Translations under genes and position numbers: made by a program
Origin: Raillietiella orientalis
Lineage: Eukaryota
Assembly (NCBI GenBank): GCA_036172245.1
Contig: JAYWIR010000026.1
Span: 992,001 to 1,056,000, forward strand
DNA length: 64,000 nt
Reading direction: 5' to 3'
Notes under the pieces: generated by a model
What the model saw: only the letters and a program-made list of their open reading frames with translations
Told to the model about the DNA's origin: nothing
Database searches by the model: none
Shown: positions 5,636 through 64,000 of the stretch, piece by piece
How positions within the stretch are numbered: the first letter of the stretch is position 1
Layout: each line of letters opens with the position of its first letter

Positions 5636-5713
5636 GAGACGAACGTGAATTCGATTCGCTCCGTTTAGCCGCTGTTTGGTTGTGCTTGTGCGTACCACTG
5701 CCTAGTCCTGAGG

Positions 5714-6850
5714 ATGAGCAGTGTACAAGGCAACGTGGAAGTCGTCGAGCCATTGGCTCAGAAACTTCATGCAGCTGGCACGATGTCGGCAACTTCTGCG
5801 AGCCGAGCGCCACCGGCCAGGAGCTTCGCGGACGTGGCTGCATCTGCAGCCGTACAAGGGCGCCTCCCGGACCAGGCGGAGTTGCAGGCGTATGTAGCCC
5901 AGGGCTACAATCCTGCACTACGCTATAATGTAAGTGGGGTAGGATTAGCTGGGGAGGAGTTCGCGGACGAACTTTTCCGTGTGGGAGTGAGAGAGGAGGA
6001 CCTGTTAGCCCTCATGCCAGTTCCTGCATTGGGCCATGTGAAGGTCCGCTGTAAGCAGGCTGCCCTTGTGCAGCGGCTCCTCCGCACTCCCCTGTCCATC
6101 CTCGGGAAAAAAGTTTTTTCCACCGCGATGGACGAATCTTTTGTCGTTGTTCTTTCGGACGTCGAACCCGAGATCAACGACAGAAATCTGATTGACGCGT
6201 TGGCGAAATTCGCCACGGTTCTCGCGATGTGGAGGAAGGGAAGTACTTATAAGAAGTTTTCTTCCCTCCACACAGGATTTGCTGCGGTCAGGATAACCGC
6301 AACTAATCGCCGCACGCTGCCAGCAACGCTGCAGGTCAACGACACGGTCGTTCACCTGTGGTTCGTAGGCAAAGATCGCGCGTGCGAGCAATGTGGCAAG
6401 GAAGGGCATCGGAGGAAAGAATGCCCTTCCCGGAAGTGCCGCTATTTCAAGGAGTCCGTGCACGAAATCAGGAAGTGCCCGGACATTAAGAAAAAAAAGG
6501 AAGCTGCTAGACTCCGGAGCGTTAAAGAGTGCGCAGAGGAGAAAATAGCCTCTAAAAAGAAAGGCGCCTCGCGAAATCCCGCAAAAAAACAGAGCGGCAT
6601 CGTGGTCTCCCAGTCGGTTTCCTCTGCGTCAAACCCCCGAAAGGGCAATCACGCTGCAGGGAAGCTAATTAAGAAAGGGCGCGGGGGCTCCGCGCCAGCC
6701 GACACTGCTCCCGCTGCCCAAAGCGTAAATTCCGCTGTGGGAATGGGGTCAGGAAAGGCCGATCAACTGATCCAAAGCGTGAAAGTGGGTCAAGGGGTTC
6801 GCGATAACCTGCATCCACTATTCCGTTTTGCATTGCGGTGGCCTCAATGA
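5714..6850 (+). CDS. ORF1 (gag-like nucleic-acid-binding protein) of copy B, frameshifted at the C-terminus
   Basis: CX2CX4HX4C knuckle plus a degenerate second knuckle and a basic tail; homologous to 19037-20980. Confidence 0.8.
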   Translation: MSSVQGNVEVVEPLAQKLHAAGTMSATSASRAPPARSFADVAASAAVQGRLPDQAELQAYVAQGYNPALRYNVSGVGLAGEEFADELFRVGVREEDLLALMPVPALGHVKVRCKQAALVQRLLRTPLSILGKKVFSTAMDESFVVVLSDVEPEINDRNLIDALAKFATVLAMWRKGSTYKKFSSLHTGFAAVRITATNRRTLPATLQVNDTVVHLWFVGKDRACEQCGKEGHRRKECPSRKCRYFKESVHEIRKCPDIKKKKEAARLRSVKECAEEKIASKKKGASRNPAKKQSGIVVSQSVSSASNPRKGNHAAGKLIKKGRGGSAPADTAPAAQSVNSAVGMGSGKADQLIQSVKVGQGVRDNLHPLFRFALRWPQ

Positions 6851-7099
6851 CCGTTTCTCCGAAAAAGGCTGGATGCCTAGCGGCAAAAGCCGCGAAAAGC
6901 GGCGGCGCGTTGCTCGAAGACACCCCGCACCCGGAAGCATCCTCCCCAACGCGGCATTTTTCCCCAAGTCCCACGAGGGGTGGAGTAAATTTATTTTTCA
7001 AAAATTTTTCTATAAAAACATTCACACTACAATCTCATCCATACCATTAGCACTTTTTTTTACCACTATGAAGTCCTTGGGTTCTCACAAGTTCTGCAC

Positions 7100-9031
7100 T
7101 CATGGTGGGTTTCCTGCTGTTTGGTCCCGGGAGTCGTCTTCTATCCTCTTCAGGATGAATCGGTACGTCCAGGCTTGGATTTTCCCACAGTTTCTAATGC
7201 CGATTTCCCTCTTCAGGAGCCCTTGTAGGGTCTCCATCGGTGGTGCGGCTCTTCTGGCTTTCCTCATTTTCCACCACCGCACAAGTATGGCGGTGATGAA
7301 GAGGGCGATGGTCGTCCTCACCATGGGATTGTAACAGGGAACATTACCATCCCCTTGAAACATCCCGGCGAGGATCTCGTGGTCGATGGAGTCAAAAGCC
7401 TTCTCCATGTCAGTGAACAAAAGCACCAGGTTCTCGCCGACGTATCCACTGAGTCCAACAGTGGCCTGGGCACACTTGACATTCTCCGACATGTGTCGTC
7501 CTGGGACTGCACATGTCTGGACCGGAGAGATCAGCCTCGACATGACCTTGCCTAAGCGGTTGGACCAGATCTTCGCCAACCACTTGGCATCGGAGCTTAG
7601 GATCGAGATTGGCCTCCATTGGGCGATCTGGGTAGAGTCGCCTCCTTTCGGCAGCAATCTCATCCGACTCTCGTAGAAGGACTAAGGTAGTCTGCCTTCT
7701 TCCTGGATGCAGAGGGTCAACTGGTGGAACAAGCGCAGGTAGGCGTGCAGGTACCGCTGATAGTGCGTGATGGGTACACTGTCAGGGCCCGCTGCCACGT
7801 CCTTGCGAAGTTGCCCAAACGCAGTCTTCAACTCTTCTTCGGAGAACTCCTCCTCCAGTCTGTTCCGCTCAAGGTCGTCGGTCCTCTTCTCGAGATAGCT
7901 CAAGAAGGCCTGTTGACTAGAGCGACACAGATGTTGTCGCCTGAAGTGTTTCATGTGATGCCTGTGAAAGGCATCCACGATGTCCTCAGACGACTGTCGC
8001 TTTTGGCCGTCGTACTGGATGCAGAAGATATCTGTTGCCAGATTTCTCTTCTCTAGCACGCCGACTTCCCCTTTTATGTTATTGAGGACGTACCGACTCT
8101 CGTACTGATCGAAGTACTTTGAGAGGGAGCGATCTTGGATGTTCAGCTCCCGGTACGCCTCTTGCCTCAAGCGCCTATCCCCGAACTGCATGTTCGCAAA
8201 CAGGTGTATCCTGTGTTTCAGGCTGTCCCAGTCGGCGACTCTTCGGATTGTTGTTGCCCTCAGAATCGCCTCCAGGACAGCCTGATGTCCAGGATGTGTC
8301 TCGAACCAGTCGGGCATGCTGATGAGCGCCGCCCTGGTGCCTTGCCTCCGCCGAGGATTCTCCGTTCTTAGGGAAAACCGCACCAGGGGGTGATCGGACA
8401 CCGTAGTCATAGTGTCGCGAAACCCCTGGATGCGGTTCCCAAGTTCGGTGCTGTGCAGGACGTGATCGATTGGCTTGTGGCTTGCTGTTCGCCAGACCAG
8501 TCCGAACTCCTCGGATAGCCGTCGATACGCCGTCCTTCCTCTGGCGTCTTCCGAATGAATGATCTCATCCAAAATGTTGAGATCGCCAGCAACAATCACG
8601 ACGTCCTTGGGGGCGACCTTTTGCCGGAGTGTTGCATGCAGCGCCTCCGCACAACGATGTTTTAGCCTGTGCGGCCCGTACACGTTCACCAGGATAAGGT
8701 GAACAGTTGCGGACCAGGCTAGTCGCACGCCGATGATTCGTCCGGGTTGTGGACAGAACACTTCCAGAATAGTGGGGGCTAAGTGGTTCTTTATTAGCAC
8801 CGCCACACCCTTCGTGTTCCGTTCTCCTTCGCTGACGAACATCTGCCCGTTGAATCGCCGTTCCATTCGCTGGCTGATCTCGAGACCCATCCTGTGGGTC
8901 TCCTGCAGGCACACGATGTCTTGTTGTGCGATGGTCCGCACAATCCTTCTTCTTTTTCCCTGGTCGACCACACCGTTTACGTTCCAGGAGGCGATGTTCA
9001 GCCTCCTGGCAGTCGATAGGGAAGAGGTCAT
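7100..9031 (-). pseudogene. ORF2 of copy X (APE + partial RT, internal stop at 7682, deleted)
   Basis: APE motifs, AAGPDS, WRPISILSSDAK, DMEKAFD; YADD region missing. Confidence 0.85.
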
Positions 9032-9632
9032 AAAAGGGGAAGACCTATTTCTTGGCCTTCCTGAGCTTCTTCTGTCTGGGAGAGCGTGCTCTTCCAGACG
9101 TCGAAGAAGCAGCGGGCTTCTCGCTGCCGGCGTCACTCTCCGTACCTGTGAGGTCGGTAATTTCCGCCTCCTCCGTAGAGTGTTCCGCCTGCGCGATCAA
9201 TTTTCGAGATAGCGCCTCTATCTCGACCTTGGCGCAGAAGTTCGCCTTCACGTCGGGAAGCTGTTCCTCTAACTTCTCGCGTTCAGCGACCTCCACCACC
9301 TGGTTGATGTTCTCTTGTGCAGTGCAGATCTTCTGCAAGATTTTCTCTTGCTGAGGACCGCTCTGCACCTCCATGATCTCCTCCGCCAGTGTTGCCAACT
9401 CCTCCGTGGTCTGCAGAGCCTCCTGCGACACTTTAGTGGCTTCCTGTCTCTCTTCCTTCGCGCCTTCCTGCGCTGCCTCCATCTTCTCGCCTTCCTGCTC
9501 TGCTGCTTCCAGGATTTGAGGAGTTCCTTGCTCCTTGACGAGCATCCTCCTCTTTTTCTTCTTTCCCACTTCTATGAAGCCGTCCGCCGACACCGGGACG
9601 GCTTCTTTCACCTTCTTCGGCCTTCCTGCCTT

Positions 9633-10916
9633 CTAAGGCTGTTCGGCCTCCTTGATGTTTCTCTCTCTCACGGGAGAGAGACCGCGAATCCTTCTGCAGT
9701 TTTCAAACTCCGGACAGCTCCATTTCGCATGTCCGTGTTTCTTGCAGAAGGAGCACACCTCCGGCTGCGGGCAGTTTCGAACTTGATATCCTACTTTGCC
9801 GCAGCGAAAGCGGCGGCAAGTTGGGCAAGCGCCGGCCCTGTGGCCGAAGTGCTTGCACCCGGTGCAGAATACCGGTTGTTGCCGGTAACGCACATTCACT
9901 CCCTGGGATTGTTCGTCAATAACGGCCAATCCAGGGATCACCGCTCCCTCCCTCAACTTCATCTTGGCGATCATGTCGCCAGAAAATTTGTTTCCAGAGA
10001 AGTTCTGGAAATCGAGGTCCAGAACTTCCCCAAACTGCTCCAAGTAATTCCACACCGCTAGTTGCGGTGTGAGGATGGAGATGCCGTTTAGAAAGACGGT
10101 TGTGTATGGCATCTCGCCAATACCACAAACCATCCGTCCTTGTATATTGATCCCCTTCTGGATCAATCGCTCTCTAATGTTTTCACAGTCTGTAAAGACT
10201 GTTAACCCGTTGTTCGATGGAATGATCGCCTGAATGCGATCAAAGTCTATGTCCGTCTTGTCGAGGGACAAATAGACCTCCCTGATTTTATTAAATTTTA
10301 TTAGCCCGGTCTTGAAGATAATGGGCTTCACGTTGGGGCCTATTTCGACTATTGGTCGGTCCACTTTTAGAACTTTTCCGCTAAGCGGCTTACCAAATTT
10401 CCTAGGTGGGTGGACACTCGCCTGTCCAGCCGCCACCGACGCATAAGAAAAGGGCTGCGACGCCGCAGCCGAACCAGATGGCGTCGCTCCCTGCACCGCG
10501 TGAACGCCCGCGGGTCCCGCCTGGGACGCCGCCGCCGCGGGCGCAAACCTCGACGTCACCGCCGCGGGCGGCACCCTCGGCATCGCCGCCGCAGGAGCGA
10601 CCTTCCCCGCCGCGAGCACGACCTCCGCCGTCGTCGCCGCGGGCACGACCCTTGGCATCGCCGCCGCCGGCGCAGCAAAGCCCGCCGCGGGCGCGATCCT
10701 CGGCATGCCTCTCGCAACCTCGCCGTTGCCGCACGTTACCTCCATGGCTTCCATGGGGGACGATGGCCTCACCACTCCTCCAACTCCAGATGCCTGCATC
10801 CTGGCAGCTGTTCCGGCTGCTCGGGACGACTGCAGGATTTCCACCGTGGAATTCTCGGCGCTGCTGCTGCTGATGATGATGGTCCCGGGTTGCACTCTTT
10901 CCACACTGGCGTTCAC
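9633..10916 (-). CDS. ORF1 of copy X (three CCHC knuckles, Ala/Pro repeats)
   Basis: CTGCKHFGHRAGAC, CGKVGYQVRNC, CSFCKKHGHAKWSC. Confidence 0.85.
   Translation of the reverse strand: MNASVERVQPGTIIISSSSAENSTVEILQSSRAAGTAARMQASGVGGVVRPSSPMEAMEVTCGNGEVARGMPRIAPAAGFAAPAAAMPRVVPAATTAEVVLAAGKVAPAAAMPRVPPAAVTSRFAPAAAASQAGPAGVHAVQGATPSGSAAASQPFSYASVAAGQASVHPPRKFGKPLSGKVLKVDRPIVEIGPNVKPIIFKTGLIKFNKIREVYLSLDKTDIDFDRIQAIIPSNNGLTVFTDCENIRERLIQKGINIQGRMVCGIGEMPYTTVFLNGISILTPQLAVWNYLEQFGEVLDLDFQNFSGNKFSGDMIAKMKLREGAVIPGLAVIDEQSQGVNVRYRQQPVFCTGCKHFGHRAGACPTCRRFRCGKVGYQVRNCPQPEVCSFCKKHGHAKWSCPEFENCRRIRGLSPVRERNIKEAEQP
10525..10715 (-). repeat. Degenerate GC-rich coding repeats in X ORF1 (MPRxxPAA units)
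   Basis: MPRIAPAA, MPRVVPAA, MPRVPPAA, SRFAPAAA. Confidence 0.6.
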
Positions 10917-13900
10917 TCAAACACTTGCCCTCTCAGGGCACTCAAAAATTGCCTTGGCAGTGGTTTTAAACACTGCCTTGGCGGGGTATTGGGTATAGTT
11001 TTAAACTAGCAATAATCACGCCTCCCTTTCGTTCAGCGGCGGCGATACCGCCCGTGCGCAAGGCTCTCGCGATCGCTAAAGGAGTTGCTTAAGCCTGCGT
11101 GGAGGCAGCACTTCAAGAGGCAGCCAAGGCAACGCCTCTTACATCCGTGGGAGCAGCGCCATCTCAGGATGGCAAAGATAACTGCGACGCGAAGGAAGAC
11201 GGCTGGATGCAGGCGAGAAAGATCATTCGAAAGAAACCATCAAGGTCTTCGCAGCTCTGTGTGAAGGTGAGTGGGCGAAAGAAACCCGCGAAACCTTCCC
11301 AGAAAAAGATTGCGATTCTTTCCTCCTGCGCAATCGTCCTCTCGCGGCTGGAGCGGGAAGCTGCTGCTGCGGCTAAGAGGACGAAAGTCCCAGGCGCAGT
11401 TGCAGAAAGCGCTAGGAAACAGGCAGCGAACGATCTCCCTAATTCCGGGAAACAGCAGCAGTGCCTGGCAAGCGCTCGACTGTCGGATTCCGATCCAGAG
11501 TCCGACAGAAAGAGCACACAGCGCGACAACCGCCCGAAACCGCGCAATCGCCTCCCGAAGATCCGCAAGCGCGTGGTTGCCGAGGAGAAACTGTTGTTGG
11601 AGAGCAAAGAGGAGGAAAAGGACCTCACCTCTGAGCTATCGGCAACAAGCAGTGCGGCTTCGAATGGAGATGTCCAGTCTCCGAGATCGACCGCTCTGTC
11701 TCGTGACGACTCGCCGGACAAGGCGAGAAATCTGTTCTCACCTTCCCAGCCTTAATGCAGGAAATCGTCTCTTTCCGTCGATACAGCGTAGCCTGTTGGA
11801 ACGTCAATGGGCTGCGCAGGGACGGAAAGAGGCGCGACGTGTCAGACACCCTGCGACATTTCGATTTGGCGATCCTTCAGGAGATGCATTACATCTCCGA
11901 TGAGGAGGTTGCCGAAATCGAACAGCGCGCGGGTGGCACCCTGTACTGGCGAGAAGGTTTTGCACAATCGTGCGGAGTCGGGTTTCTCGTTAATAGTAGG
12001 ATGGCGGGAGCAGTGCGCAGCGTTCGATTCGACAAGGAAGGCAGAAGAGGCCAACTTGTACTCAAGTGATCAGATTCAATCGACCTCGTCGTAACGAACG
12101 TCTACGCGCCGAGCGGCTTTCATCGGCGTGTCGAAAGAATCGAGTTCTTCGACGTGCTGAAGAGCCAATGGCTCAGAAACTCCGGAGCCAGAGTGGCGCA
12201 TCTCGTCGCAGGGAACTTCAACGTCCACCTGCTTTCCAACGAGACCCGATCCCTGGCGGAACGGTCGCGGGTGGAAGAAGCATGCGCGTTGGTGCACGCG
12301 TGTAACTTGGAAGCCGGCGAGCCTGGACTGGAAAGGAACGTGGATCACCTCTACCTCGATGAACACCTACTCTCGCGAGTGGGAAGGAGAGGCAGGGTGC
12401 CGTCCACGTTATCGGACCATGATAGGCTGGAGTTCGAGCTACTCCCGCCTGGCAAGGGACCTCCAAACAACGTTTAAATTATGCCGGCGGATTGGCTGAG
12501 TCACCCGGAAGCGGCGAAGCATCTTCGCCAGTTCCTTTGCGGCTCTGCCATCCGGGAACTCGCAGACTGGGACCATCTTAAAAGATCGGTTCGCGAGTTT
12601 TGCGACCGGTTCCCCCTGCAACTGCTACCACGCGGCTTCGGGGAAGGCGTGGCCAATAGCAGAGCATTTCTGCAGGCGTGCACCTTCTCGAGACGTGCGG
12701 AAGTCCGGCAACTCGCAGAGTACAAGGCGAGGGCCGAGCGCCAGGTCTGGCAGTCTGGAGCGGCTATTCTGCTCGACGACCAAGGCCGGGAATGCACGGC
12801 TCCTGCCGAAGTGCGGCGAGCACTAAAGCGTCACTTCTCCTCGCTCTACGCTAATTCCCCGACGGAAAGAGTCCTCTCCGAACTACTTTTGCCGCGGGCT
12901 GCACATGGCATCGGCGAGGAGGAACGCGATCGTCTCGACGAGCCCTTCACGTTGGAGGAAGTTTCTTCCGCCATCGCAGGACTCAAGAGACGGGAGACGC
13001 CAGGTGAGGACGGACTGCCCGCGGAGTTCTATCAGAGCTTCGCGGCGGAACTCGCCCCACTGGTTCCTAGAATCTCGACGCTGATGAGGGTGACGGGCGA
13101 TGTCCCTTCTTCCTTCCGCTCAGAAAGGGTGCGTCTCCTTCCGAAAGGAGGGGATCTGCGCCAACTCAACAAATGGCGTCCGATCACATTAGTGAATAAG
13201 GACGTCAAGTTGTTTTCGAAGCTGTGGGTCACGCGCTTAGGGAAAGTCGCGGAGTCCCTGGTAAGCCCGGAGCAGTCTTACGCTGTACCGGGTAGATCAA
13301 TGGATGCGAACCTTCTTTTCGCGCGCACCTGGTGGCAGCTCCAAGAGCGCGTTGCAGCGGATAGCCGAACAGCGGCAAGACCTTCTGCCGACTGCGTGCG
13401 CCAGTGCGAACGGACGGAAGAAAGGCCGGGAGCCTTGACACCAGCAGTAGATTTGCACAAAGCATTCGATTTTCACCCGGATTTCGCCGGGGCGTTTATT
13501 ATAAAACAAACATCTACAAAGACGTGCAGTGGCTGGACCATTGCTCCAGCCACGCACGAAGAAACACAGAGCCTGCCGGGTCACCGGTTTGCAGACCGGT
13601 ACGGTCCACCACGGCAGCAGGGGGAAGGGGGAAAAACAAAAAACAAAACAAAAAAGAAGAGAAAAGTTGGGAGGGTAAGGGAAGGGATCACAGTTGCTGG
13701 TGGGGCCGTTGCATCCTTTGCAGGATGCCGGCAAGCTCCTTCTGTATTTCTGAATCCAGGTGGGGCCATCGGGACGCCCTCCTCTGGAACTGGAAGGCTG
13801 GCTGGATGGCACCCTGGTCGCGTTGTCCTCTCTAGGCCTTGCCCCAAGCGGTGACGATCCCGCGTAGGCAGCACAAAGCTGCTAACGAGGCCGCTGGCCG

Positions 13901-15120
13901 AAGGGCGTCGGCAACGAAGAAGACTTTCAGTGCGTCCCTGGGGTTGCGGCAGGGGATTCCGATGGCCGCGGCAAAGCGAAACCAAAGGGGCCGAAGGGCA
14001 ACACAATTGACTAGCAGGTGGGGGAGGGACTCCCGTTCCCCACACCTGACGCAATTGGGGTCCACCGCTCCCCAGGTCCAGTGGTGTCGGCGGGCGTTGC
14101 AGTGAAGTCCCCAGTGCTGCAACAGGAGAGCCGACTCCTGCCATTTTAAGGGGAGGGCGGAAGTGTTCATGAGCACCGGGGGCCACTTCAGATGTTCAAT
14201 GGGAACATCGAGCAGCGCGCCCCAACGCAGAAGTCCATTGGGAGGCGTACTCGGGGTCGCAGCGTCTGTTAACTGGCCCGTCTTCCACTCTCCTATCTTC
14301 TTCTCCTTTCCGGAGATTGTTACTGTAACCACCCACTTCGCCGCAACATCGCTGTCCAGATCTTCCATCAGGGAGGGCAGCGCAGCAGCGAGGGCGGTTC
14401 TTCCTGCCCACGCTCTCTTCTTTGGATCCTCCAGGATCTCGCGAAGCGTGCAACTTCTGTAACCCCCAAACAGGAACCTTCGTTCCTGTTGGGAGCGTTG
14501 CATGCCGAACTGTCCCCACGTTCGAACGGTTTCCTGTAACCAGGCACTACCGTTAAACGGGCGACAGGTGAGCAATCCTGGGTTTTTCCGATACAGCGCA
14601 GCCACCCTCCTTAGCTGGAGTCCGCATCGGTTGACGCGGCGACGGAGTGCAAGAAACGACGTCAGTCCCGTCTTGCCGGTGGCTTGCTGGAGAAGGATAC
14701 GTGCAGGGACGCACCAACAGGTGCACCACAACTCTGGAACGAGTGCCGACAATCGGAACTGGAGCTGAAGCTCCAGCCACTCCAGCATCAGGAGGCCCAG
14801 ACCACCATCCCGACGAGGAGCGCACAAGTCCTTTAAGCGGACTCGGGCCCTCCCGTTGCCCCAAAGGGCGATACGGAGGAGGTCCTTTGTCCGCTTTTTA
14901 ATTCTCTCTGTAAGGGGGCAAACGAAAAGCAGGGGGCGGAGGAGAGGAGCCGCGAACGTGTTCCAAACCGCGGCCCGTTAAGGCAGGAAAAACCTGCCGC
15001 CTCGGAACGGGCCGATCGCCGTCTCTACTTTTTATAGGCAGCCGGACCACGCTTCCGCAGGGGAGTAGTCCCCCAACGGCACATCAAGGTACTTGAAGTA
15101 CCTCACCGTGAGCATCCCCA

Positions 15121-25027: not shown

Positions 25028-25031
25028 GAGT

Positions 25032-25038: not shown

Positions 25039-25117
25039 TGTTTCCTTCGCTCCCGAGTGAGTCGACAGGAAGCGGTTTTTTCTATTGTTGTTTGGTGTGG
25101 AACATCGTTGGTGTCCG

Positions 25118-32800: not shown

Positions 32801-33228
32801 ACCTCCCAGTGTCTGAGCGCGTTAACCGGCATGACGGCCAGCAGGTCGTCCTGTCGGACCCCGACGCGCAAAAGCTCATCCCAAAGGTTTTCTCCGACCC
32901 CTTCGGAGATTGCAACACTCTCCGGATAGCAGAGCGCAGGCTTGTAGCCATGGGCTGCATATGCCTGCAGCTTCGATTCTTCGGGCGGTGCTCCGTTGTG
33001 TGCCACCGCCTTGACGACGGCGGCGAAGCTTCTCGCCGGTGGCGAGACACAAGAATCAGAGGCGGGCCGGACATCTGGAGTAGAGTCTCCACTGCCAGTA
33101 GCAGCCTCCACATCCATCTATTACTGCAGGGGCTCCGTGGACATCCCAGTGGACGCACTCGGGCACACCACACACAAAATACGAAAAGGAATCACGCTCG
33201 AGGAGCAACACAGAACACGTCCGTGCGG
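29832..33228 (-). mobile_element. Copy A2 (lineage 1): 5' end through early RT, frameshifted; inverted near-duplicate of A1
   Basis: Long stretches read as the reverse complement of 18952-22037; 5' CCGCACGGACGTG at 33228-33216. Confidence 0.92.
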
Positions 33229-41752: not shown

Positions 41753-41768
41753 CGTAAAGCTTTCGATT

Positions 41769-52100: not shown

Positions 52101-55100
52101 CTTCCCCGCGGCTTCGGAAAGGGTGTCGCGAACAGCAGATCGTATCTGCAGGCGCGTACCTTTTCACGATGCCCGGACGTCCGGCGTCTGGCGGAGTATA
52201 AGGCCAGGGCCGAGCGCCAGGTTTCGCAGTCTGGAGCGGCTTGTCTGCTCGATGACGCTGGCCAGGAATGCTCGGCTGCAGCCGAAGTACACCGCGTAGT
52301 CAAGCGCTACTACTCCTTGTTGTACGCGGAGGAGCCCACGGAACGCAGTCTCTCCGAGCTGCTTCTTCCGACGGGCAACCCTGCTATCGACGAGGAGGAA
52401 CGCGCCAGATTGGATTAGCCCTTCACGGCGGAAGAAGTATCTTTTGCCATAGCGGGCCTGAAGAGGCGTAAGGCGCCTGGGGAGGATGGCCTGCCCGCGG
52501 AGTTCTTTCAGTGCTTCGCGGAGGAGCTCGTCCCCCTGGTGCTAAGCCTTTCCTCGCTGATGCGTGAGACGGGAGATGTTCCCGCTTCTTTCCGCTCAGC
52601 AAACGTGCGACTCCTGCCGAAAGGCGGTGATTTGCGCCACCTCAGCAACTGGCGTCCGACTACTTCGGTGAATTCGGACGTCAAGCTGTTCTCCAGGCTA
52701 TGGGTCGCGCGCCTGGGGAGAATCGCAGAGTCCTTGGTAAGTCCGGAGCAGACGTCTGCTGTTCCGGGGCGGTCCATGGACGCGAATCTCTTCTTCGCGC
52801 GAACATGGTTCGAGTTGCAGCAGCGCGTGGCGCAGCAGATCCAGGCAGCCGAAATCGCCGCTGCCAAAGGAAAGCGGCGGTGTTCAAGGCACGATGGAAC
52901 GCCGGGAGCCTTAGCGGTCGCCGTCGATCTCTGCAAAGCGTTCGACAGCGGAAACCAGGACCTCCTTCTGGAGCTTCTGGGACGCCTAGGGCTCCCGACG
53001 CACCTCATCGCCTACTTGCGCTCCTGCTGGCGCCACGCGTTATGCTGTATCTCTTTCAGCGGGCGTCACGTGTACGGTGTTCCCATACGGCGATGTATCA
53101 GGCAGGGAGACAGCTTAAGCCCCCTGCTCTTCAGCATCTTCTTTGAGTTGGTGCTGAGGGCGTACAGGCTGAAGCTGGCCAACCTGCCGAGCTTCTGCCC
53201 GGGAACACCGGCCGTGGCCGCCTATGCTGACGACCTTCTCCTGCTGCTGCCCATGTCCACTCCGGCGTCCAGGCTCGAGGACTTCTTCGAGCTCATTCGT
53301 CGGGGAGCAGGCCTGAGCGTGAACAGGACGAAATCAACCGTTGTACCGGTTGGCTCTACGTGGGAGGGGCAGTCCGACTGCATCCGCCTGGGGATCCCCA
53401 CGGGCAGGCGCTTGAAGTACCTCGGCATTCCCTTGGGCGCCTTCTGTCCATCAGAAGGGTGGTCGGACTGCCTTCACATGGCCGAGACAGCTCTGCGCCC
53501 GTTCCAAGGCGGCAGGTTTGTCCTGTCGGAACGGGCCTTCGTGTGGAACATTTTCGTTGCCCCTCTCCTCCGTCCCCTCTTTTTTGTTTGTCTTCCTCCC
53601 TACTCGGCTAAGCGCCGGGCGCAACGCCTGTTGCGTAACGCCCTGTGGGGACCGGCGAGGTCCAGGATACGCCTGAAGGACTTGGCGGCTCCTCGGCGGG
53701 ATGCAGGATTGGGCATCCTGACGCTGGAGCGGATCGGACTGCTAGTGCAGTTCCGCATGCTGGCACTTTGTGCGCAGCTCTGGACTACTCCCTGGTGTGC
53801 TCCAGCGCGGCTGCTGCTGCGGCGCAGCACGGGTAGCGACGGACTACGTTCGTTGCATCTGCGCACGGAGCGCGCCCAGAGAGAATTCGGCTTCCCTTTG
53901 AAGCAGCTCGCCACGCTTCTGGGGAAGCATGAGTGGATCTCCTGCCGGCCGATGAACTTCAACGCCTGGAGGCAGGAATACTTATCGTCCTGGGCAGCAC
54001 AACAGGATGTGTCCCGTTTAGAGCTCCGTTGCGTGAGACTTTCCCCATACTGTCCAGTGGGGGAGGTGCTGGAAGACCAGGACCAGTGGACACGCCTAGC
54101 CGCTACGCCACTCGCCGAAGCACTGTGTGCACTGATTTTGCGAGATGACAGTGACCTGCCGGCGAGGTTGGAGATCAGTTGCGAAATCGCAGGCGAAACC
54201 CGACTGCTGGGCGGCTGGCGGACTTGCGAAGTGGCTGACGCTGCCACACCTCGCATTCTTGCAAAGGGGCTTCTCCGGTAGAGTGAGCTCCTCGGGGTGC
54301 CCACCGATGAACTTGTGGTCCCTTCTGCGTGTTTGGACGCGACTCTCTTCCCCCTTTCGTTGGAAACAGGACGCTTTTCTGCTGGTGCATTGGGGTTTGT
54401 ACTGCAACCAGCGGGCGCACCTGATTTCCGGGGGAGTTGCGTCCCTGAACTGTGCCAAATGCGGAGCGGTGGAATTGCTTCCTCATTTGCTGTTTGAGTG
54501 CGGTGCCCTCCAGGAGCTGTGGCAGCGGCTGTCTTCAGCGCTCCTGCACCCTGGACACACCGCACTGGATTGGATGCGCCGCTTCTACACGCGTGGCGGT
54601 CTTTCTCTTAAAGCGGTCGTCGCAATCATCTGCTGCGTGCGCGCCATTGTCAGGGCCCGCCACGTATTGCAGATGCGAGCAATCCCAACATCGGTCCCCG
54701 ACACCGCAGCCTGCAACCTGCAACTGGCTGCCGGTTGGCCACATCTTGGAGCAGAAGTGAGGATGGAGATCGGCGGCATTCACCGCCGGTTCCGAGAATA
54801 GGAACGGTTAGATTGTATACCCCTGTCCCCGCCCTCCCACCCAGTTTATTTATTTATTGTCCCACCCCCTCCCGTTCCGAACTCTCAGTGTGCCCGTACT
54901 GCGTTCCGGGAAATCTACTCCCCATTTTCTGTTCCCCTTGCCTGGGAACACAGTTCTCAGTTGATATTATAATGAACGTCCCGGCGCATCCGGGTAATAA
55001 ACGACGGACGCCACCGCCGGGTCGTGAGCCTCCGGCATTAATTTGCCGGAGGGCTAAAAGTCGGCAGCGACAAGTGCAACTTTGTTGCTCTGTTGGACCG

Positions 55101-56276
55101 CAGGAAAGCGCTTGATGACGACAGAGCAGCGCTTGATATTTTCGCCACGCGCCAAAATCTCACTGCGTTTCGCGACATTTTTTTTTTTTGCTTCCTTGAG
55201 GCTTTTCTGCTTCTTGGATTTTCCTACCTGCCATTCAGGTTCATGGCCGTTCTCGACCTTGTCCGAGTTTTCCAAGATGTCGGAGCTGAGCTTCACCTGG
55301 GGCACGATAGTTGTTTTTGAGCGGCGGTTCTCTCTCGGGCTGCCTGAACTCGTCTTTTTCTCGCCGCGCGCTTCTTCGCATTCCGTGCGGACTCGACGCA
55401 GACTTCATTTTGCGGGCACACTGGAAGTGTGTGCCCGGGTTGCTTGCATTGCTTGCATTGCAATTAAGGCACCTTTTTTTCAGGTGACCTGAAGTGCTGC
55501 AATCCCCGCAGAAATGCGGCTTACCGACACACCAGATGTCAACGGGTTCGCTGTTGACCTCCAGCTTGTTAGGTACGGAGCAACCCTCGCGGACCATGAT
55601 GCGCGCGGAAGCCATACCGCAATTCAGGAGATCGTACTCCCAAAACGAAGTCGGCCTTTTCCACAACGCGTGGACAGTTCCAAATTTAACTAGTTCCTTT
55701 CGGACAGCCTCTTCGGCCATCCGGAAGGTGATTCCGAGGAGGTGGATTACGATAGATCTATCCTCCGTGATGGGGAGGAGCCAACGATTCCCTAAAGGAA
55801 CAGGTGTACGGAGCAGACGCTGGGCAAGACTTGCTTCTTTGCAATTCACCTCAACGTACTGTCCACCACTCCTGATGGTCATCGCCAAGAGCTCCTCCTG
55901 TGGTACTTTGAGGGATTGCATCGCTTTCGAGAAAGCGCGTGCACTCTCAAAGGAGTAAAGGTTGCCTACTTTGTAGAGTAGACAGGGATTGTACCCCTTC
56001 TCCAGGTAGGCTTTTAACTCAGCCGCAGCCGCTTGTGTTGGCGCGGCAGTCATGGAAATCCAGCTTCTCCCTAGCGAGGGGTCCCTTCTGTGGGGGCGGA
56101 TGCCCCCACATCCATTGATTCAGGAGGCGACATAGACGTCGCCCCCTCCTCAACATTGGTGATGGTCCCAGGCATTGCTGCCTAGCCACCACCGAATCCA
56201 CTGGCACACCAAGAAAAAAAAGAAAGAAAATTAAACCACAAACGCTCAAGAGCGAAACAAAAACCCGTCCGCTCTC
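46120..56276 (-). mobile_element. Copy K (lineage 2): full-length but degraded, 46120-50379 and 55001-56276, split by A3
   Basis: 5' GGACGGG 56270-56264; ORF1 56053-55241; APE 49900-49200; RT with YADD ~47940; hairpin 46125-46150. Confidence 0.87.
50380..55000 (+). mobile_element. Copy A3 (lineage 1): both termini, ~1.2 kb internal deletion, antisense in ORF1 of K
   Basis: 5' UTR matches A1; deletion at ~51741; RT frame 52539-54281 with YADD; hairpin 54971-54995; candidate TSD AC(A/G)ACGG 50373-50379 / 55001-55007. Confidence 0.9.
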
Positions 56277-59200
56277 GCTCTTGGACTTGGACGATCTGAA
56301 AAGATCGGTCCGCAAGTTCTGCTGCCAAATCTTCTTGCGCCTGCTTCCTCGTGGCTCCGGGGAAGGCGTCGCCAACAGCAGAGAGTTTCTGCAGGCCCGG
56401 CAATTCTCCCGATGTCTGGACGTCCGGTACCTTGCGGAGTACAAGGCCAAGGCCGAGCGCCAGGTCTGGCAGTCAGGAGCGGCTTGTCTGCTCGACGACC
56501 AGGGCCTGGAGTGCTTGGGCGCGGCCGACGTGCGCCGCCTCCTAAAGCCCTACTACTCCTCGTTGTATGCTAGGGAGCCGACGGAACGCAGTCTCTCGGA
56601 GGTGCTTCTGCCGGCGGATTCCCCTGCGCTCGACGAGGAGGAACGCGCCACTCTTGACTTGCCCTTCACGGCAGAAGAAGTGTCTTCCGCCATAGCAAAC
56701 CTCAAGAAGCGCAAGGCGCCAGGTGAGGATGGTCTGCCTGCGGAGTTCTTCCAGTGCTTCGCGGCGGAACTCATCCCCTTGGTGCTGAGGCTTTCAGCGC
56801 TGATGCGAGAGACGGGCAATGTACCGGCCTCGTTTCGCTCAGCAAGGGTGCGTCTCTTGCTGAAACGCGGAGACATGCGCCATTTAAGCAACTGGCGTCC
56901 CATCACCTTGGTGAATGCGGACGTCAAGTTTTTCTCCAGGATCTGGGTCGCGCGCCTAGGCAGGATCGCTGGATCCGTGGTAAGTCCGGAGCATCTTACG
57001 CTGTTCTCGGGCGGTCCATGGAGGCGAACCTGTTCTTCGCGCGCACGTGGCTTGAGCTGCAAGCTTGCGTGGCGCACGACAGCCACGCCACCGCATCTGC
57101 GGCTGCCCAGGCTAGGCGTCGCTGCATTCGGTCTGTGGAAGAGCCGGGTGCCTTGGCGGTCGCAATCGATCTCCGCAAAACGTTCAAGTTTCACCCGGAT
57201 TTTCAAGGGGTGTTTATTACAAAATTAACATCTACAAAGACGTGCAGTGGCTCGACCAGTGCTCCAGCCACGCACGAAGAAACACAGAGCCTCCCAAGTC
57301 ACCCTACCCAGGTCCAGTGGTGTCTGCGAGAGTTGCATGGGAGTCCCCAGTGCTGCAACAGAAATGCCGACTCCTGCCATTCAAAGGGGAGGGTGTAGGT
57401 GTTTATTTGTACCGGGGACCAATTAAAACGTTTGATGGGAACGTCGAGCAGCGCGCCCCAGCGAAGAAGTCCATGCGTAGGCGTACTCGGGGTGGTAGCG
57501 TCAGTCAGCTGACCCGTCTTCCACTCCTCTCTTCTTCTCCTTTCCAGAGATTCTAACTGTAACCTCCCACTTCGCCGCAACATCACTGTTTACATCTTCC
57601 ATCAGGAAGGGCAGAGCAGCAGCGAGTATGGTTCTTCCTGCCCACGCTCTCTTCCTTGGATCCTTTAGGATCTCGCGGAGCGTGCAATTTCTGTAACCCC
57701 CAAACAGGAACCTTCGTTCCTGTTGCGAGCGTTGCATGCCGAACTGTCCCCACGTTCGAACGGTTTCCCGCAACCAGGCACTTCCGTTTAAAGAGCGACA
57801 AGTGACCAATCCTGGGTTTTTCCGGTACAGCGCAGCCACCCTCCGTAGCTGGGATCCGCATCGGTTGACGCGGCGACGGAGTGCAAGAAACGACGTCAGA
57901 CTGGTCTTGCCGGTGGCTTGCTGGAGAGTGAGACGTGCAGGGACGCACCAACAGGTACACCACAACTCTGGAACAAGTGTCGACAATCGGAACTGGAGCT
58001 GAAGCTCCAGCCTCTCTAGCGTCAGGAGACCCAGACCACCGTCCCGACGAGGAGCGCACAAGTCCTTTAAGTGGACTCGGGCACTACCGGTGCCCCAAAG
58101 GACGATACTTTAAAGGTTCTTTGTCCGCTTTTTAATTCTCTCTGTGGGGGAACAAACAAAAAGCAGGGGGCGGAGGAGAGGAGCCGCGAACGTGTTCCAA
58201 ACCGCGGCCTGTTCAGGCAGGAAAAACCTGCCGCCTCGGAACGGGCCGATCGCCGTCTCTACTTTTTGGAGGCAGCAGGACCACGCTTCCGCAGGGGAGT
58301 AGTTTCCCAACGGCACACCAAGGTACTTGAAGTACCTCACCGTGGGGATCTTCAAACGAACCCATTCCTGCTGCCCTGCCCACGCCGCACCAACTGGCAT
58401 CACGGACGACTTCGCCCTGTTAACCGTAAGTCCGGTTCCCCGATGCAGCAGGTCGTAGAACTCCTCGACCGCCGAAGCCCGGGTGGACATAGGGAGCAGC
58501 AGCAGAAGGTAGTTCGCGTACGCTGAAACAGCCGGCGTACCGGCACAGTCGTGCGGCAGGTGCGCCAGAGTTCCCCTGTACGCTCTCAGTACCAACTCAA
58601 AGTACGTACTGAAGAGCAAGGGGCTCAGGCTGTCTTTCTGCCGGATCCCACGCCACACCGGCATGCCGTGCACGGTCTGCCCGCTGAAAGTAACATTGAT
58701 GAGCGCGACGCGCCAGCAGGAGCGCAAATAGGCCTCTAATTAGGCCGGAAAGCCCAAGCGTTCCAGAACTCAAGAAGGAGATTCTCGTCGACGCAATCGA
58801 ATGCTGTCTGCGAGTCGAATGCGACCGCAAGGGCTCCCTCCCCCACCCGACCACCCAACTTCTTGCCGGCGCACGCACCGGAATTCCGGCTGCGCTTCAA
58901 GCTCCTCTCATTTTGGAGCTCTAGCCAGGTGGAAGCGTGGAACAGGCTCTCCTGCATGCTTCGCCCGGGAACAAAATATGTCTGTTCCGGGCTGATGAGG
59001 ATGTTTGCAACCCGTCCCAGACGCTCTGCCCAAACCTTAGCCAGCAACTTAGCGTCCGCATTTACTATTGTGTTTGAACGCCAGTTGTTCATGCTCCGCA
59101 GATCTCCTCCCTTAGGGAGGAGCCGTACCTTTGCCGAACGAAACGAGGCGCTAACTTCACCGCTCTGGCGTATCAGCATGGTGAGTTTCTGAACCAGGGG

Positions 59201-60036
59201 GGTAAGCTTAATCGCGAAAGTTTGGAAGAACTCCGCGGGCAGGCCGTTCTCCTCTGGAGGTTTGAGTCTCTTGAGCTTTCCGATGGTCGAGAGGATCTCG
59301 TCCTTCGTGAAGGGCTCGTCGAGAGTCTTTATGTCCTCCTCCTTGTTTGGTGGAGAGCTTTTCAGAAGCAGGAGTCGTAAGACGTTCCTCTCCAGAGGTG
59401 CCATGGCATACAGGGAGGAATAGTATCTCCGCATCAGGCCGCGAATTTGGACAAGTACCGAGTGCTCCTTGTCCTGATCGTCCACCAAGCTGGCCGATCC
59501 GCACTGACAGGCTTGCCTCTCGGCTCCCGCTTTGTATTCCGCCTGCCTGCGGATGTCGGAGGTCCTAACGTAACGACGGGCCCGCGGATAGGCTCGTTCG
59601 TTACGGACCGCGGTTCCAAAACCCGTAGGTAGGCGGTGCAGAGGGAACTGATGGCAGAACTCCTGGACCGACCGCTTGATGCGGTCCCAATTCTGGAGTG
59701 TCCGCAGCCTGAAGCTCCGTATGAACGTGCGGAGATGTTACGCCGCGTCCGGGCGCTCCAGCCAGTCCCCTGGGAGACGCCACGCTGTCAAGGGGGGGCT
59801 TCTGTTGCGCGGATGGATCTCGAGAACTAGCGGGCGATGGTCGGATAGCTCTCACGGTAACTTGCCGCGCCTGCCCACGCGAGGGCACAGGTGCTCGTCA
59901 AGAAACACGTGGTCAATGCTGTCTTCGATCCTCGGTGCACTGGCCAACAAATTACAGGTGTGCACCGCCATGCACACCTCGTTGACAAGGTCACGCTCGG
60001 GATTCTGCCCATGTGGTTTCAGGCCAACGTTGAAAT

Positions 60037-61748
60037 TTTTCACCCGGTCATGCCGGGACGTTTATTTACATAAACGAGCTGGAAACAATTGTTTTTAGCT
60101 CTCGACTCTGAAAACATGCAGCGGAGATTCACTCCTGGCACGCAGGCCAGGAAAACGGAAGAACATGGACGACTGAGGGAAGTCCAAAAAAAAAAAAATT
60201 GTAAATGGGAGGAGTGGGCCAGGGAACTTTGTTGTTGCTCCGCACTCATTGGGAAACTCAAAAGTTCTAGCACAAAAAGGACTCGGGAACGTATGGGGAA
60301 AAGGACGCGAAAACAAAAAAAAACAATCAAAAATAAAATGAGGGCGGATCACCGATTTCGTTGTTCTAAGCCGTTGCTGATCCGGTGATGGATACCGGTT
60401 AGCTCCTCCGTTGTGTCTTCATATAAGTGTCGTTACTCAGCTGCCGACCTCATGAAGTCAGCTGCCTTCTTGGTGACACAACATTGCTGTCCAATATTCT
60501 CCAGCACGTCTCGGACCGTGACGATGGCGCGGATGCAACCAACTGTGGAAATCGTCGCAGCCATCGAAAGTCCTTGTGTCTGGAAGAACCGTCGCAGCAC
60601 TTCTCGAGCGGTGTCTCCTGGTGACGGGAGAGCTGCTGCTAGCCTCCTCCACAGTTCCTGGAGGGCTCCGCAGTCCATAACAAGGTGCGGGAGCGACTCC
60701 TTCGCTCCGCACCGGGCACAGTAGGGAGAAGTCACCCCACCGGAAACTCGGTGGCGCCGCTCGTTGTGGCGCAATCCCCAGTGCAAGAAAAGCGAAACGT
60801 CTTGCTTCCATGCAAGGGGAAACACCGAACCGTCCAAACACCAGGGAGGGACTATAAGTTCTTCGGTGGCAACACCAAGAACTTCTCTTCACCGAAGAAA
60901 CCCCTTTGGTGTAGCACGAGGAGTGGCGGCATCCGCAAGCTCGCTCGTGGTCCATTCGTTAACTGGTTTTGTTCTTCCTGCAGTGGTGCAGGAGAACTCC
61001 CACCTTGCAGGCTGGCTACTGTCATTTTGAGCCTCGAGGGCAGACAGTGCTTCGGCAAGGGGGGTGGCGGTCAAAGAGGAAAGCTTCACTTCGTCCTGCA
61101 TGACATCTTGGAGTGACCAAGGCTGGAATCGACGATGGGGGCGAAGATCTTTACGGCTCATTTCTAAGAATGCAGCCCACGAATCAATGGATTCCTGCAT
61201 CCAAGCATTATAGTTCATTGGTCGGCAGGTAATCCACGTACTGGCTTCCAATAGGGTGGCGATTTTCCTTGAAGGATAGCCAAGTCCCTGTTTCCTGTGG
61301 CGCAAGCCAGGCACCAAAGAAAGTAATCCTTCACTGCCTGCACACCTTTTCAAAAGGCTGCGCGCAGGCGCACACAGGGGCGAAGTCCATAGCTCGGCAA
61401 AAAGTACGAGCATCTGGAACTGCACTTGCAGTCCGATTCGCTCCATAGTCAGGATACGCAAACCAGCATCCCGACGCGGAGCAAGCAAATCTGTAAGGCG
61501 GATCCTGGATCTCGCCGGACCCCAGAGAGCGTTTCTAAGCAGGAGTTTTGCCTGCTCTTTGGCCGCACAGGGGAAGTTCAAGACAAAAAAGAGGAATCGG
61601 AGGAGGGGGGCCACGAAGGTGCTGCAAATAGCCGCCCGTTCCGGCAAGGTGAACTTGCTGTTAATGAACGGGCTGGCAACCAACTCGGCCTTATGAAGGC
61701 AGTCCGACCACGCCTCGGCAGCACCGAGGTCGCCCAACGGAACGAAAA
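60037..61748 (-). mobile_element. Copy L (lineage 1): 5'-truncated insertion with an 11-bp target-site duplication
   Basis: AACGTTGAAAT at 60026-60036 and 61749-61759; APRRDAG, CARCGAKESLPHLVMDC; hairpin 60041-60066. Confidence 0.93.
60041..60066 (-). terminator. Conserved 3'-end signal (AATAAA + hairpin), type example; eight further copies listed in findings
   Basis: Element strand AATAAA-CGT-CCCGG-CATGA-CCGGG-TG-AAAAA. Confidence 0.85.
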
Positions 61749-64000
61749 AACGTTGAAATCACCGAACCACATGGGCATTCCGCACGCCTTCTCTGGTCAG
61801 CCAGTCGCGCCGGAGAGCAAGGAAAAACACTTTCCTCCCCCTCCTATTCATCAGGTCCGCGCCAATCGGTGAGTACACGTTCGTGACGATCAGATCGATC
61901 GAGTCGGACCACCTGAAAGTCAGCTGGCCGACAGGACAGTGATCGTCGAACCGCACGCTCCAAGCCGCGGCCTCGACTGCTGGCCGAAGCAGGTAGGCGA
62001 CACCGCAACTTTTCGGTTTCCCACACCTATACCATAGCCGCCATCCGGAGAACCGTTCGATCTTTTGCGCTTGTTCTGCACAGATCACGTGGATCTCCTG
62101 CAGCAGCGCAAGGTCGTAGGACTCCAGAAGAACGGCCATGTCTCGTCTCCTGCCGGCGTCTGTCATGCCGTTCACGTTCCAAACGACGATGCGCAGACGA
62201 CGGCGGGAGGAGATTCCCGGCATTACTGCTGGGAAGATTAAGGTGTGGGGTAGCCCACCTCTTGCGAGGCAGGCATGATATCCATGGGGGTTTCGGCCTT
62301 CTCAGGAACCAGAGGCACCTGTTCGGCCTCCACCTCCTCCATCCCCTCCGTGTCCGCGCGTGGGAGTCTCTCGGGCGATGGGTCCCGAGAGTTTCCCACG
62401 CTGATGGCACCCTTGCTTGCGGAAGCCATTTCTTCCCCCTCGACGGGGGAGACGAGCTTCCTCCGCTTTCTGAACTTACGTCCAGACTTCCTGCGGGGTG
62501 CCGTGGAGACGGAGGCTGCATTTCCGGCCTCCACCTCGGGGTCGGAAGTGGGGGACTCCTGAGGGGAGGCCGGACGCCTTACGGCCTTCTTGCCAGCCTT
62601 GGAGGGTTCTGGCTGCAACGAGGCTGCCAGCTCCTCCGCGGCTCGCGCGAAGGCTACGTCATCGATGGTGGTGTCGATGACGGACGCCGCCGCCGGCTCG
62701 CTCCCCTCGCTGTTGACATAGTCAACAGAGGGGAGGTCGTCGGTAGCGGCAAGTTCTTTCTGGCAGCGTTCGGCAACATGGAGAACGCGTTCGACGACGA
62801 CGCTGCACTCTTTAATTATCGCGCTACCCTGCTCTTTCTTCTTTTGTTGGTAGGCGATTTTTTTTTCCATCCTCCTCTCCTTCTTTGATTTTTTTGCCGT
62901 TGCCACTTGCCACCCAATCTCCTGGCCGGCTTTCTCAACTTTTTCGGCGTTGGTCGCCGGAATCTCGGGTGCTGCCTGGGTCTTGGGAACGGGTGGCACA
63001 GTCTTCGCGGCAGCTTTCGCCGCCAGACTTTTCTGCAGAAGCCGGGCGCGTTTTTAAAGGTTTCTCTTGGAAACCACTCGCACTGCTGCTTTTGAGCACC
63101 CCTCCTTCGTGTGACCCATTGTGCCGCATACTTGGCACTGCACGTTGGGACACCTCTTTTTGAGGTGGCCCGACGTATTGCAGAAGCCACATTATTTCGG
63201 CTTCCCCACATACCAGAGTTCGACGGTTTCGCCTTCGGCCTCCAGATTGTAATGAAGAGTGCAGCCCTCCCAAAAGGTCACGCGCGCAGCCGTGAAGCCG
63301 TGTTGTAGCCCCGTGTAGTCCTCGAAAGGACCAACTTTCGTCCACTGCGGGTGGACCGTTCCAAACTGTTCCAAAGCGGCGCGAACCAGTTCTTTGCGCA
63401 TTCGCGCGGTCACGCCTAACAGGTGGACCACCATGCTGCGGTCCGCCGTAGTGGAGAGAAGCCTGCGCGTCTCCATCACAACGGAGGTTTTAAGCAGTCG
63501 TTGGGCCAGCTCTGCATGTTTGCAGATGACCTCAACGTACTGACCCCCGCTGCGGAAGGTCATAGCGCTGAGCTCCTCCTCTTTCACATCGAGAGCGCGC
63601 ATGCCCTTCGAGAAGGCGCGCGCGCTCTCTAAAGAATATAAATTGCCTACCTTGTAGAGCAATGAGGGGTTGTACCCCTCCTCTACATAGCCCGACAATT
63701 CCGCCGCGGCTGCAGGCGATGGCGCCGACACAACGGCGCTCCACGCCCGCGCTGCAGCGGGGACCGATTCCGTGGGGGCGGATGCCCCCACCTCCATCGC
63801 CTCTGGGGGCGACGTTGCCGCCGCCCTCTGGCTCTCTATCGCCTCTGGGGGCGGCGTTGCCGCTGCCCCCTGGCCATCCCTGGTGGTCGCGTCAGGCATC
63901 GCTGCCTGATCGACCACCGAACCACACGACGCTTGCACTGGGGAAGACTTCCTGGCACGAGGAGCACCGAGAAAACACGTCCACCCTGGAGCGCACAAGG

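Follow-up and report, generated by a model that had tools for sequence, protein, structure and literature searches.

Recurrent same-site insertions in a nested LINE array of Raillietiella orientalis point to coding motifs of other LINEs as landing pads

The stretch of Raillietiella orientalis DNA described here (contig JAYWIR010000026.1, positions 992,001 to 1,056,000; 64,000 nucleotides, hereafter the window) consists, from ~3.3 kb to 64 kb, almost wholly of long interspersed nuclear element (LINE) sequence, as found by a six-frame self-comparison. The array is a nest of two-open-reading-frame non-long-terminal-repeat retrotransposons of the apurinic/apyrimidinic endonuclease (APE) type, L1-like in that they combine APE with a reverse transcriptase (RT). 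It interleaves at least eight sub-families from two deep lineages, with many copies of full length, and reaches a nesting depth of six (N<B<E0<A1<G<C1, from host to insert). Copies of three families, designated A, E and C, recur at the same sites in other LINEs. This recurrence is a strong signal, stronger than any rule relating one lineage to the other, and it was not stated in the original prediction made for this DNA. It probably reflects target-site-specific LINEs that use conserved coding motifs of other LINEs as landing pads, as judged from the junctions in the assembled sequence.

The array and its two lineages

The onset of the array at ~3.3 kb is abrupt. Positions 1-3000 have a GC content of 35-42%, and the sequence from ~3.3 kb to the end 54-65%; the array averages ~60% GC versus 35% in the flank. 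The flank is non-repeat sequence whose minus strand contains open frames resembling exons (e.g. 829-1275 and 1254-1553), and an exon-like frame taken from it had no match in a protein search.

The long open reading frames (ORFs) of the array contain RVT_1, Exo_endo_phos and zinc-knuckle domains. The best RVT_1 match has E = 9e-25 (22292-24592, minus strand), Exo_endo_phos is recognised with E = 2.8e-17 (7682-9136, minus) and 1.5e-15 (45297-46319, plus), and the APE and RT domains follow each other collinearly in ORF2 coordinates. The zinc-binding domains are close to their thresholds: zf-CCHC (cut-off 20.8 bits) reaches 22.2 bits in 5714-6850 and 20.4 bits, below the cut-off, in 25085-26872, and zf-RVT scores 25.4 and 20.4 bits, both below its 27.5 cut-off; CxxC..H..C strings are seen in the translations. 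Each element would comprise an ORF1 with CCHC knuckles and an ORF2 encoding the APE endonuclease, the reverse transcriptase and a C-terminal zinc-binding region. To map the fragments, two natural ORFs (1194 aa of ORF2) taken from the window and two ORF1s were used as rulers. An exhaustive protein search yielded two stand-out relatives, with 59% and 33% identity; the other matches have 24-37% identity, except one 132-aa fragment at 60%. As relatives are few and distant, public data appear to contain little of this family.

The two lineages are real. The original prediction had separated them by diagnostic motifs, and all four motifs fall on the claimed sides: GFGEGVANSR (12634+, 15173+ and 30324-) and APRRDAG (53688+ and 61482-) in lineage 1, LCAPRRDGG (29318+, 23431-, 14827-, 36048- and 58061-) and YKVGNLY (3792+, 55975-, 63656- and 41375-) in lineage 2. 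YKVGNLY belongs to ORF1 in the E/K/N part of lineage 2; in family C the motif reads YQVGNLF. Phylogeny agrees with the motifs. Maximum likelihood trees were built from four blocks of a 20-fragment nucleotide alignment comprising ORF2 and the 3′ untranslated region (UTR); in the RT-C and C-terminal blocks the split received a Shimodaira-Hasegawa-like approximate likelihood ratio support (SH-aLRT) of 100, as did the lineage-1 clade in the APE block. Lineage 1 contains A1, A2, A3, J, B, M and L; lineage 2 contains C1 and C2, then E0, E2, K and H, then G and I.

All copies share a 3′ end of the form AATAAACGCCCCGGC....CCGGGTGAAAA (AATAAAyGyCCC.GGC....CCGGGTGAAAA). Nine such ends are clear (13470, 18216, 22038, 34692, 43944, 46121, 55000, 57188 and 60037), and a weaker candidate lies at 3352. 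No long poly(A) tail was found at them; the ..CCGGGTGAAAA ends carry 2-5 A, ~15-20 nt after AATAAA. Long tails are missing in many LINE clades, so a short tail does not exclude an L1-like class. Three A-/T-rich stretches (13632-13655, 46281-46321 and 43767-43797) were considered as tails and rejected, being internal to the 3′ UTR, with the true end ~150-200 nt beyond. A small stem formed by CCC.GG and CCGGG is kept in 9/9 ends; compensatory change is seen in 0/5 of its pairs, which is evidence neither for nor against a structure. The last ~35 nt are shared by both lineages although their ORF2 proteins are only ~50% identical, and this could indicate common 3′-end recognition and possible cross-mobilisation. 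A full-length 5′ start reads GGACGTGT and is preceded by GCAC in families A and N, while M, I and L are truncated at the 5′ side (at aa 281, 560 and 738 of ORF2). A metagenome scan with a conserved 25-mer of the A 5′ end gave 0 hits; a scan with the shared 3′-end motif gave 10 loci, none with blastn or tblastn similarity to the window, and these were taken as chance matches.

Insertion sites of families A, E and C

Family A, of lineage 1, is inserted in ORF1 of lineage-2 elements. Its target is GCGTCGTCGTCGA(ACGC), which in the sense of the host encodes KEC/SVVVER (here and below a slash marks a junction). A1 (18952-22037, plus) has a full-length 5′ end, ORF1, and ORF2 to aa 358, where the 3′ end of element G cuts it. 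It adjoins the 5′ part of E0 (18217-18951, minus), which holds the C-terminal part of ORF1 and APE aa 4-60 and is cut at the A site; 18217-18395 had been considered as part of A1, an assignment rejected because this is host (E0) sequence. A2 (29832-33228, minus) likewise has a full-length 5′ end, ORF1, and ORF2 to aa 463, without the 3′ end. It adjoins H (33229-34691, plus), a lineage-2 element of the K/E clade that covers ORF1 from the A site onward and ORF2 up to aa 300, cut by A2 on the left and by C2 on the right. The two junctions, 18951/18952 and 33228/33229, fall at the identical nucleotide of the hosts, and the empty site, ..GACGACGACGC/TGCA.., can be read in the uninterrupted copies E2 and E1. 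With up to 3 mismatches, the A-site 17-mer has 4 matches in the window versus 0.28 expected; all are in lineage-2 ORF1 and none in lineage-1 elements, which binds family A to lineage 2 within the window. An A element stands at 2 of these 4 matches, the site of H itself being too diverged to match.

The third copy, A3 (50380-55000, plus), is full length bar an internal deletion. It lies in ORF1 of the lineage-2 element K, between the 3′ part of K (46121-50379, minus; from the 3′ end up into the C-terminal part of ORF1) and its 5′ part (55001-56283, minus; ORF1 with YKVGNLY, and the 5′ end). A target-site duplication (TSD) of 10-11 nt (ACGACAACGG / ACGACGGACGC) is directly seen, and the insert adjoins CCGTTGTCGTCGAACGC (50363-50379). 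The A3 site was considered as an orthologue of the A1/A2 site and rejected on protein collinearity, which places it 40 aa downstream in ORF1; there K reads GCGTCCGTCGT.., the other hosts GCGTCCGTCATCGA. The CCGTTGTCGTCGAACGC beside A3 is either K's own target-matching sequence, with a 10-11 nt TSD like that of L, or a stretch of 21-26 nt carried from the source of A3; under both origins K's own flank, GCGTCCGTCGT, resembles the A-site core. Family A was scored as 3/3 copies with the same site and orientation. Compared with A1 and A2, the 1.17-kb deletion of A3 removes the end of ORF1 and the first half of APE.

The target of family E, of lineage 2, is AAAGCnTTCGAy/TGCGT, the part of RT motif A that reads KAFD. 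E0 meets B with its 3′ end after ..AAAGCATTCGAT/, and E2 likewise meets J after ..AAAACGTTCAAG/, which is the same alignment column. B (5641-13470, plus), of lineage 1, is in two pieces split by a further element, D: the first (~5641-6955, plus) has the 5′ end and the N-terminal part of ORF1, and the second (~11100-13470, plus) the C-terminal part of ORF1 and ORF2 aa 4-577, stopping exactly at RT motif A. There the 3′ part of E0 begins (13471-15119, minus; ORF2 aa 729 to the 3′ end). J, also of lineage 1, has a left part (43948-46120, plus; ORF1 aa 204 to ORF2 aa 274) and a right part (56284-57187, plus; ORF2 aa 281-576), which stops at KAFD/. It is followed by E2 (57188-63982, minus), a full-length member of family E that contains the element L and in which the A site (62787-62803), the C site and the KAFD site are uninterrupted. 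Relative to E0 (13586-14062), E2 is without 478 bp of the C-terminal/3′ UTR region (57188-58356).

E1 (40310-41741, minus) is the 5′ part of an E-like element, with the 5′ UTR, an ORF1 carrying YKVGNLY, and an uninterrupted A site. Its 5′ end adjoins P (41742-41791, plus), a 50-nt RT remnant around motif A that reads ..GTAAAGCTTTCGAT/TGCC.. with the KAFD motif 26 nt in; this fits an E TSD of ~25 nt. P is 61-68% like the motif-A region of every lineage, so that it cannot be assigned to one. For family E, 2/2 scorable 3′ ends are at KAFD and one 5′ junction is beside the motif. Six uninterrupted matches to the E target were found with up to 3 mismatches, one in lineage 1 and five in lineage 2, the latter including E2's own, ACAGCATTCGAT and not AAAGCATTCGAT (AAA changed to ACA). 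With fragment P left unassigned, E occupies 2/4 lineage-1 sites versus 0/6-7 lineage-2 sites (P ~0.1). The target is almost the same in both lineages, and the target sequence itself therefore does not restrict E to lineage 1.

Family C, of lineage 2, has its target in the LPxGFG segment between APE and RT. C2 (34692-40309, minus) is a full-length copy of 5.6 kb with the GGACGTGT 5′ start and the conserved 3′ end, and this 3′ end meets H after ..GGGATTTGGGGT/. C1 (25032-29831, plus), from the GGACGTGT start to ORF2 aa 987 and without a 3′ end, has its 5′ end against G, before /(A)CTCGCCAAGGGATTCGGCGG. G (22038-25031, minus) is a lineage-2 element whose 3′ end lies in A1 and whose upstream end, at aa 296, is the C site. 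The host ends of H and G overlap by ~20 columns (nt) at LPxGFG, as expected for a TSD. Read from these opposite ends, 2/2 copies would be at one site, and both hosts are of lineage 2. Upstream of the 5′ ends of C2 (40259-40309) and C1 (24982-25031) there is in both cases CCCTCCGCsG, though the flank of C2 is ORF1 of E1 and not a C site; the shared string may be microhomology at 5′ joining. All eight A, E and C events are antisense to their hosts.

Insert and host identities bear on whether these events happened separately. The A copies are 91-95% identical, the E copies 89%, and C1 and C2 83%; identities among the E0 5′ part, H and K are 79% and 58-59%, and between B and J 71-72%. The contrast of insert with host covers the A and E hosts, G and H sharing only the ~20-nt site. 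In sliding windows, identity steps up exactly at the element boundary, from 73-83% to 89-100% in the comparison of E0/A1 with H/A2, and from 60-78% to 81-95% in that of B/E0 with J/E2. E2 is 91% identical to the E0 flank, yet its A site is empty and perfect, while the more distant H (79%) is filled. B and J, both filled at KAFD, do not group as sisters, J having 77-78% identity with family A and 72% with B. As precise excision is not a property of LINEs, each site must have received at least two insertions, and the same-site insertions are therefore independent events. Gene conversion cannot produce the boundary steps or the pattern of filled and empty sites.

Conversion or recombination has left traces within the inserts themselves. 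Two parts of A1 (19554-19853 and 20604-20903) are 99-100% identical to the inverted A2, versus a background of 93%, and are likely gene-conversion tracts. Identity between C1 (25032-29831) and C2 (35536-40309) is 68-76% in the first 1.2 kb, 86-96% in the middle and 72-83% on the 3′ side, a mosaic that suggests recombination or conversion between sub-families.

Insert-host pairs and the origin of the nest

The original prediction rested on a table of insert-host pairs, from which it derived reciprocal insertion between lineages. All 14 pairs can be located as physical junctions in the window. In three of them (K>J, L>E2 and A3>K, insert first) the two flanks join up within a single host, and the remaining 11 have one junction each. 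At the K insertion only 2 nt of J are missing. L (60037-61764, minus), a lineage-1 copy from aa 738 to the 3′ end, has an 11-nt TSD, ATTTCAACGTT, in E2; the empty site is present in contigs of the public run X1, where 60036 and 61765 are connected through 7 host letters, as K and H would predict. In this run 7% of the sampled words are present, and its short contigs were placed on 44001-64000. M (15120-18216, plus), of lineage 1, has an intact 3′ end that meets the 5′ part of E0 at APE aa 60. N (3515-5640, plus; F in the original prediction) is lineage-2-like, with the 5′ start GCAC/GGACGTGC, ORF1 with YKVGNLY, and APE to ~aa 175, where the 5′ end of B cuts it. Two pairs hold as junctions and less well as nestings: E1, placed in I (41792-43947, plus; lineage 2, G/I clade; ORF2 aa 560 to the 3′ end), actually adjoins fragment P in front of I, and for I in J the landing of J behind I reads equally well.

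Some features of the array stand outside these pairs. Element D (~6956-11000, minus) belongs to a third, very distant LINE lineage and lies within ORF1 of B; it was missing from the original table. It has APE, RT to ruler aa 592, its own ORF1 at 9633-10916, and an A-rich end with AATAAA near 6960-7060. At 29831/29832, C1 (plus, to ORF2 aa 987) meets A2 (minus, to aa 463) in a tail-less junction; both lack their 3′ parts, and this is a rearrangement breakpoint rather than an insertion junction. A ~160-bp 3′-terminal fragment of a further element (3352-3514, minus; ..GCGGGTGAAAA) stands head-to-head with the 5′ start of N, and the same geometry recurs at E0/M (15119/15120) and G/C1 (25031/25032).

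When hosts are weighted by length, 7.26 of the 14 pairs are expected to be cross-lineage, and 11 are (P = 0.036); a Fisher test on the table [[0,6],[5,3]] gives a one-sided P of 0.028. Counting families A, E and C once each leaves 8/9 cross-lineage pairs (P = 0.023). The predicted cross-lineage excess is thus present in the window, at a nominal level (P ~0.03) and among events that are not independent, A1/A2/A3, E0/E1/E2 and C1/C2 each being one family that uses one site. The accompanying claim that no family sits in itself is not significant as self-avoidance in a sample this small: no same-family nesting was seen, 0.96 was expected, and the probability of none is 0.36. Eleven of the 14 pairs are antisense (two-sided binomial ~0.06), or 6/9 after collapsing families, which is not significant. 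The table is better explained by family-specific target sites than by a rule of lineage versus lineage, and the cross-lineage bias is mostly a by-product of those sites, to which alternating bursts of activity may add. The predicted mutual dependence for landing sites fits families A and E, for which it remains live; it fits less well with an E target that is nearly identical in both lineages and with C, which is found twice in its own lineage.

How would such sites build a nest? At least three families would integrate by target-primed reverse transcription, each at one defined sequence and antisense to the host element. Marks of this mode in the window are the conserved 3′ ends, the 5′ truncations of M, L and I, the TSDs of A3 and L, and the empty L site. 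With conserved motifs of other LINE families as landing pads, each burst of activity would bury itself in the copies of others, and a nest of mostly cross-lineage pairs would result. The endonuclease of the element may confer the specificity, or a read-through 3′ flank may pair with the target. A family would be expected to avoid targets in its own sequence, where it would otherwise inactivate its own copies.

Several points weigh against site-specific integration as the explanation. A single 64-kb window supplies all the evidence, and no site has more than 2-3 events. Only for A3 and L is a TSD directly seen; those of E and C are pieced together from opposite ends of different copies, and the target specificity of the APE endonuclease is a candidate property. 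The 21-26 nt of A-site-like sequence beside A3 could be a 5′ transduction from the source copy and not K sequence. Good targets are unoccupied: the perfect A site in E2, and the KAFD sites of M, G, C2, I and K, that of A3 also being empty. No common motif was found in the 3′ flanks of the G, I, K, L and M inserts, so that not all families need be site-specific. Gene conversion has left signs in A1/A2 and in the C1/C2 mosaic. Finally, the flanks at B/E0/M, H/C2/E1 and P/I/J do not belong together, and with the C1/A2 junction they indicate that deletions or rearrangements have reshaped the array.

A more ambitious version of landing-pad use can be put forward only tentatively. The families might form a closed guild in which the obligatory pad of each is a coding motif of another, lineage 1 entering ORF1 of lineage 2 and lineage 2 the RT motif of lineage 1. 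Each family would be self-immune because its own target is lacking or mutated, as in the ACAGCATTCGAT of E2, and the two lineages, mutually dependent, would jointly build and renew a self-contained, possibly centromere-like array.

The best-surviving alternative, itself rather unlikely, involves no lineage-level targeting. Insertions would occur anywhere in a repeat-rich, perhaps heterochromatic or centromere-like, cluster, and alternating waves of lineage activity together with a small sample would produce the table. Such waves could account for much of the cross-lineage excess, which amounts to only 11 pairs versus 7.3 expected, and zero self-nesting is expected 36% of the time. The nesting orders N<B<E0<A1<G<C1, J<K<A3 and J<E2<L alternate with age; B and J are old as hosts, with 72-78% identity to their relatives, and the A copies are 91-95% alike; the E target occurs in both lineages, and C is found in its own. 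Left unexplained are the re-use by three families of one nucleotide position and one orientation in diverged hosts, and the location of A3 beside one of only four 17-mer matches in 64 kb. As an account of the lineage-level table alone, activity waves are compatible with site specificity.

Much less probable is the spread of single old insertions by segmental, including inverted, duplication, with gene conversion making the inserts look younger than their hosts. The E0 5′ part and A1, with A2 and H, do form a 3.8-kb inverted repeat of 91% identity, and the A1/A2 patches and the C1/C2 mosaic show that conversion occurs here. Duplication is opposed by the identity steps, placed exactly at the boundary in both tested cases, by the empty site in E2 next to the filled one in H, by the non-sister relation of B and J with empty KAFD sites in A3 and M, and by the non-orthologous position of A3 in K, given that LINEs do not excise precisely. 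Least probable of all is homing by ectopic gene conversion through host homology, without a site-specific nuclease: it would give the same position and orientation, and conversion tracts are visible in the array, but host identity around the sites, at 58-79%, falls far short of the usual requirement of homologous recombination, the flanks are diverged right up to the junction, A3 has a TSD at a non-orthologous place, and E0 appears 5′-truncated with a different element on its other side.

Comparison with known systems

Site-specific LINEs are already known from rRNA genes, small nuclear RNA genes, telomeric repeats and microsatellites. A literature search that left out supplements and most subscription journals found no description of reciprocal LINE-into-LINE targeting. 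The window provides sequence-level evidence for several autonomous LINE families that appear to use precise motifs in the genes of other LINEs, including the catalytic motif of the RT. If this were true genome-wide, it would explain concretely how nested LINE arrays like those proposed to be centromeres in algae are built. It would also be a natural example of transposons parasitising other transposons, possibly with immunity to themselves, and its APE endonucleases, or RNA-guided steps, would offer long (~13-20 nt) target specificities.

The Zepp and Zepp-like (ZeppL) L1 LINEs of green algae form nested GC-rich clusters in which new copies are said to target existing ones (PMC8226300, PMC3446292, bioRxiv 2025.03.28.645958). 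Zepp clusters are local GC peaks, 61% versus 53% in Coccomyxa. The likeness, drawn by description, is that of a GC-rich cluster of nested L1-type LINE copies, ~60% GC in the present array versus 35% in its flank. Zepp arrays, as described, consist mostly of the 3′ ends of one family stacked via 5′ truncation. The present array, in contrast, interleaves at least eight sub-families of two deep lineages, retains many full-length copies and has internal coding motifs hit in antisense.

Most target-specific families of APE LINEs are placed in the early-branched, Tx1 and R1 groups (PMC4640811). The likeness to Tx1 and R1 concerns the mode of targeting and not clade placement: an APE LINE uses one sequence, in one orientation, in a multicopy target. 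Tx1L sits in the Tx1D transposon, R1 in 28S ribosomal DNA (rDNA), and TRAS and SART in telomeric repeats. The known targets of this group are RNA genes, microsatellites, telomeric repeats and a DNA transposon, whereas those in the window would be coding motifs of other autonomous LINEs; a further difference is that the window has at least one pair of opposite-lineage families hitting each other's lineage.

A niche of repeated targets held by several LINE lineages is also known: R1 and R2 share the 28S rDNA unit, and HeT-A, TART and TAHRE share the telomere arrays of Drosophila. In these cases, however, the target is a host gene or the chromosome ends and not the ORFs of the co-residents, and the telomere arrays are head-to-tail rather than nested in antisense. 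The array of R. orientalis has its nesting in common with Zepp and its precise targeting with the LINEs of the Tx1/R1 type.

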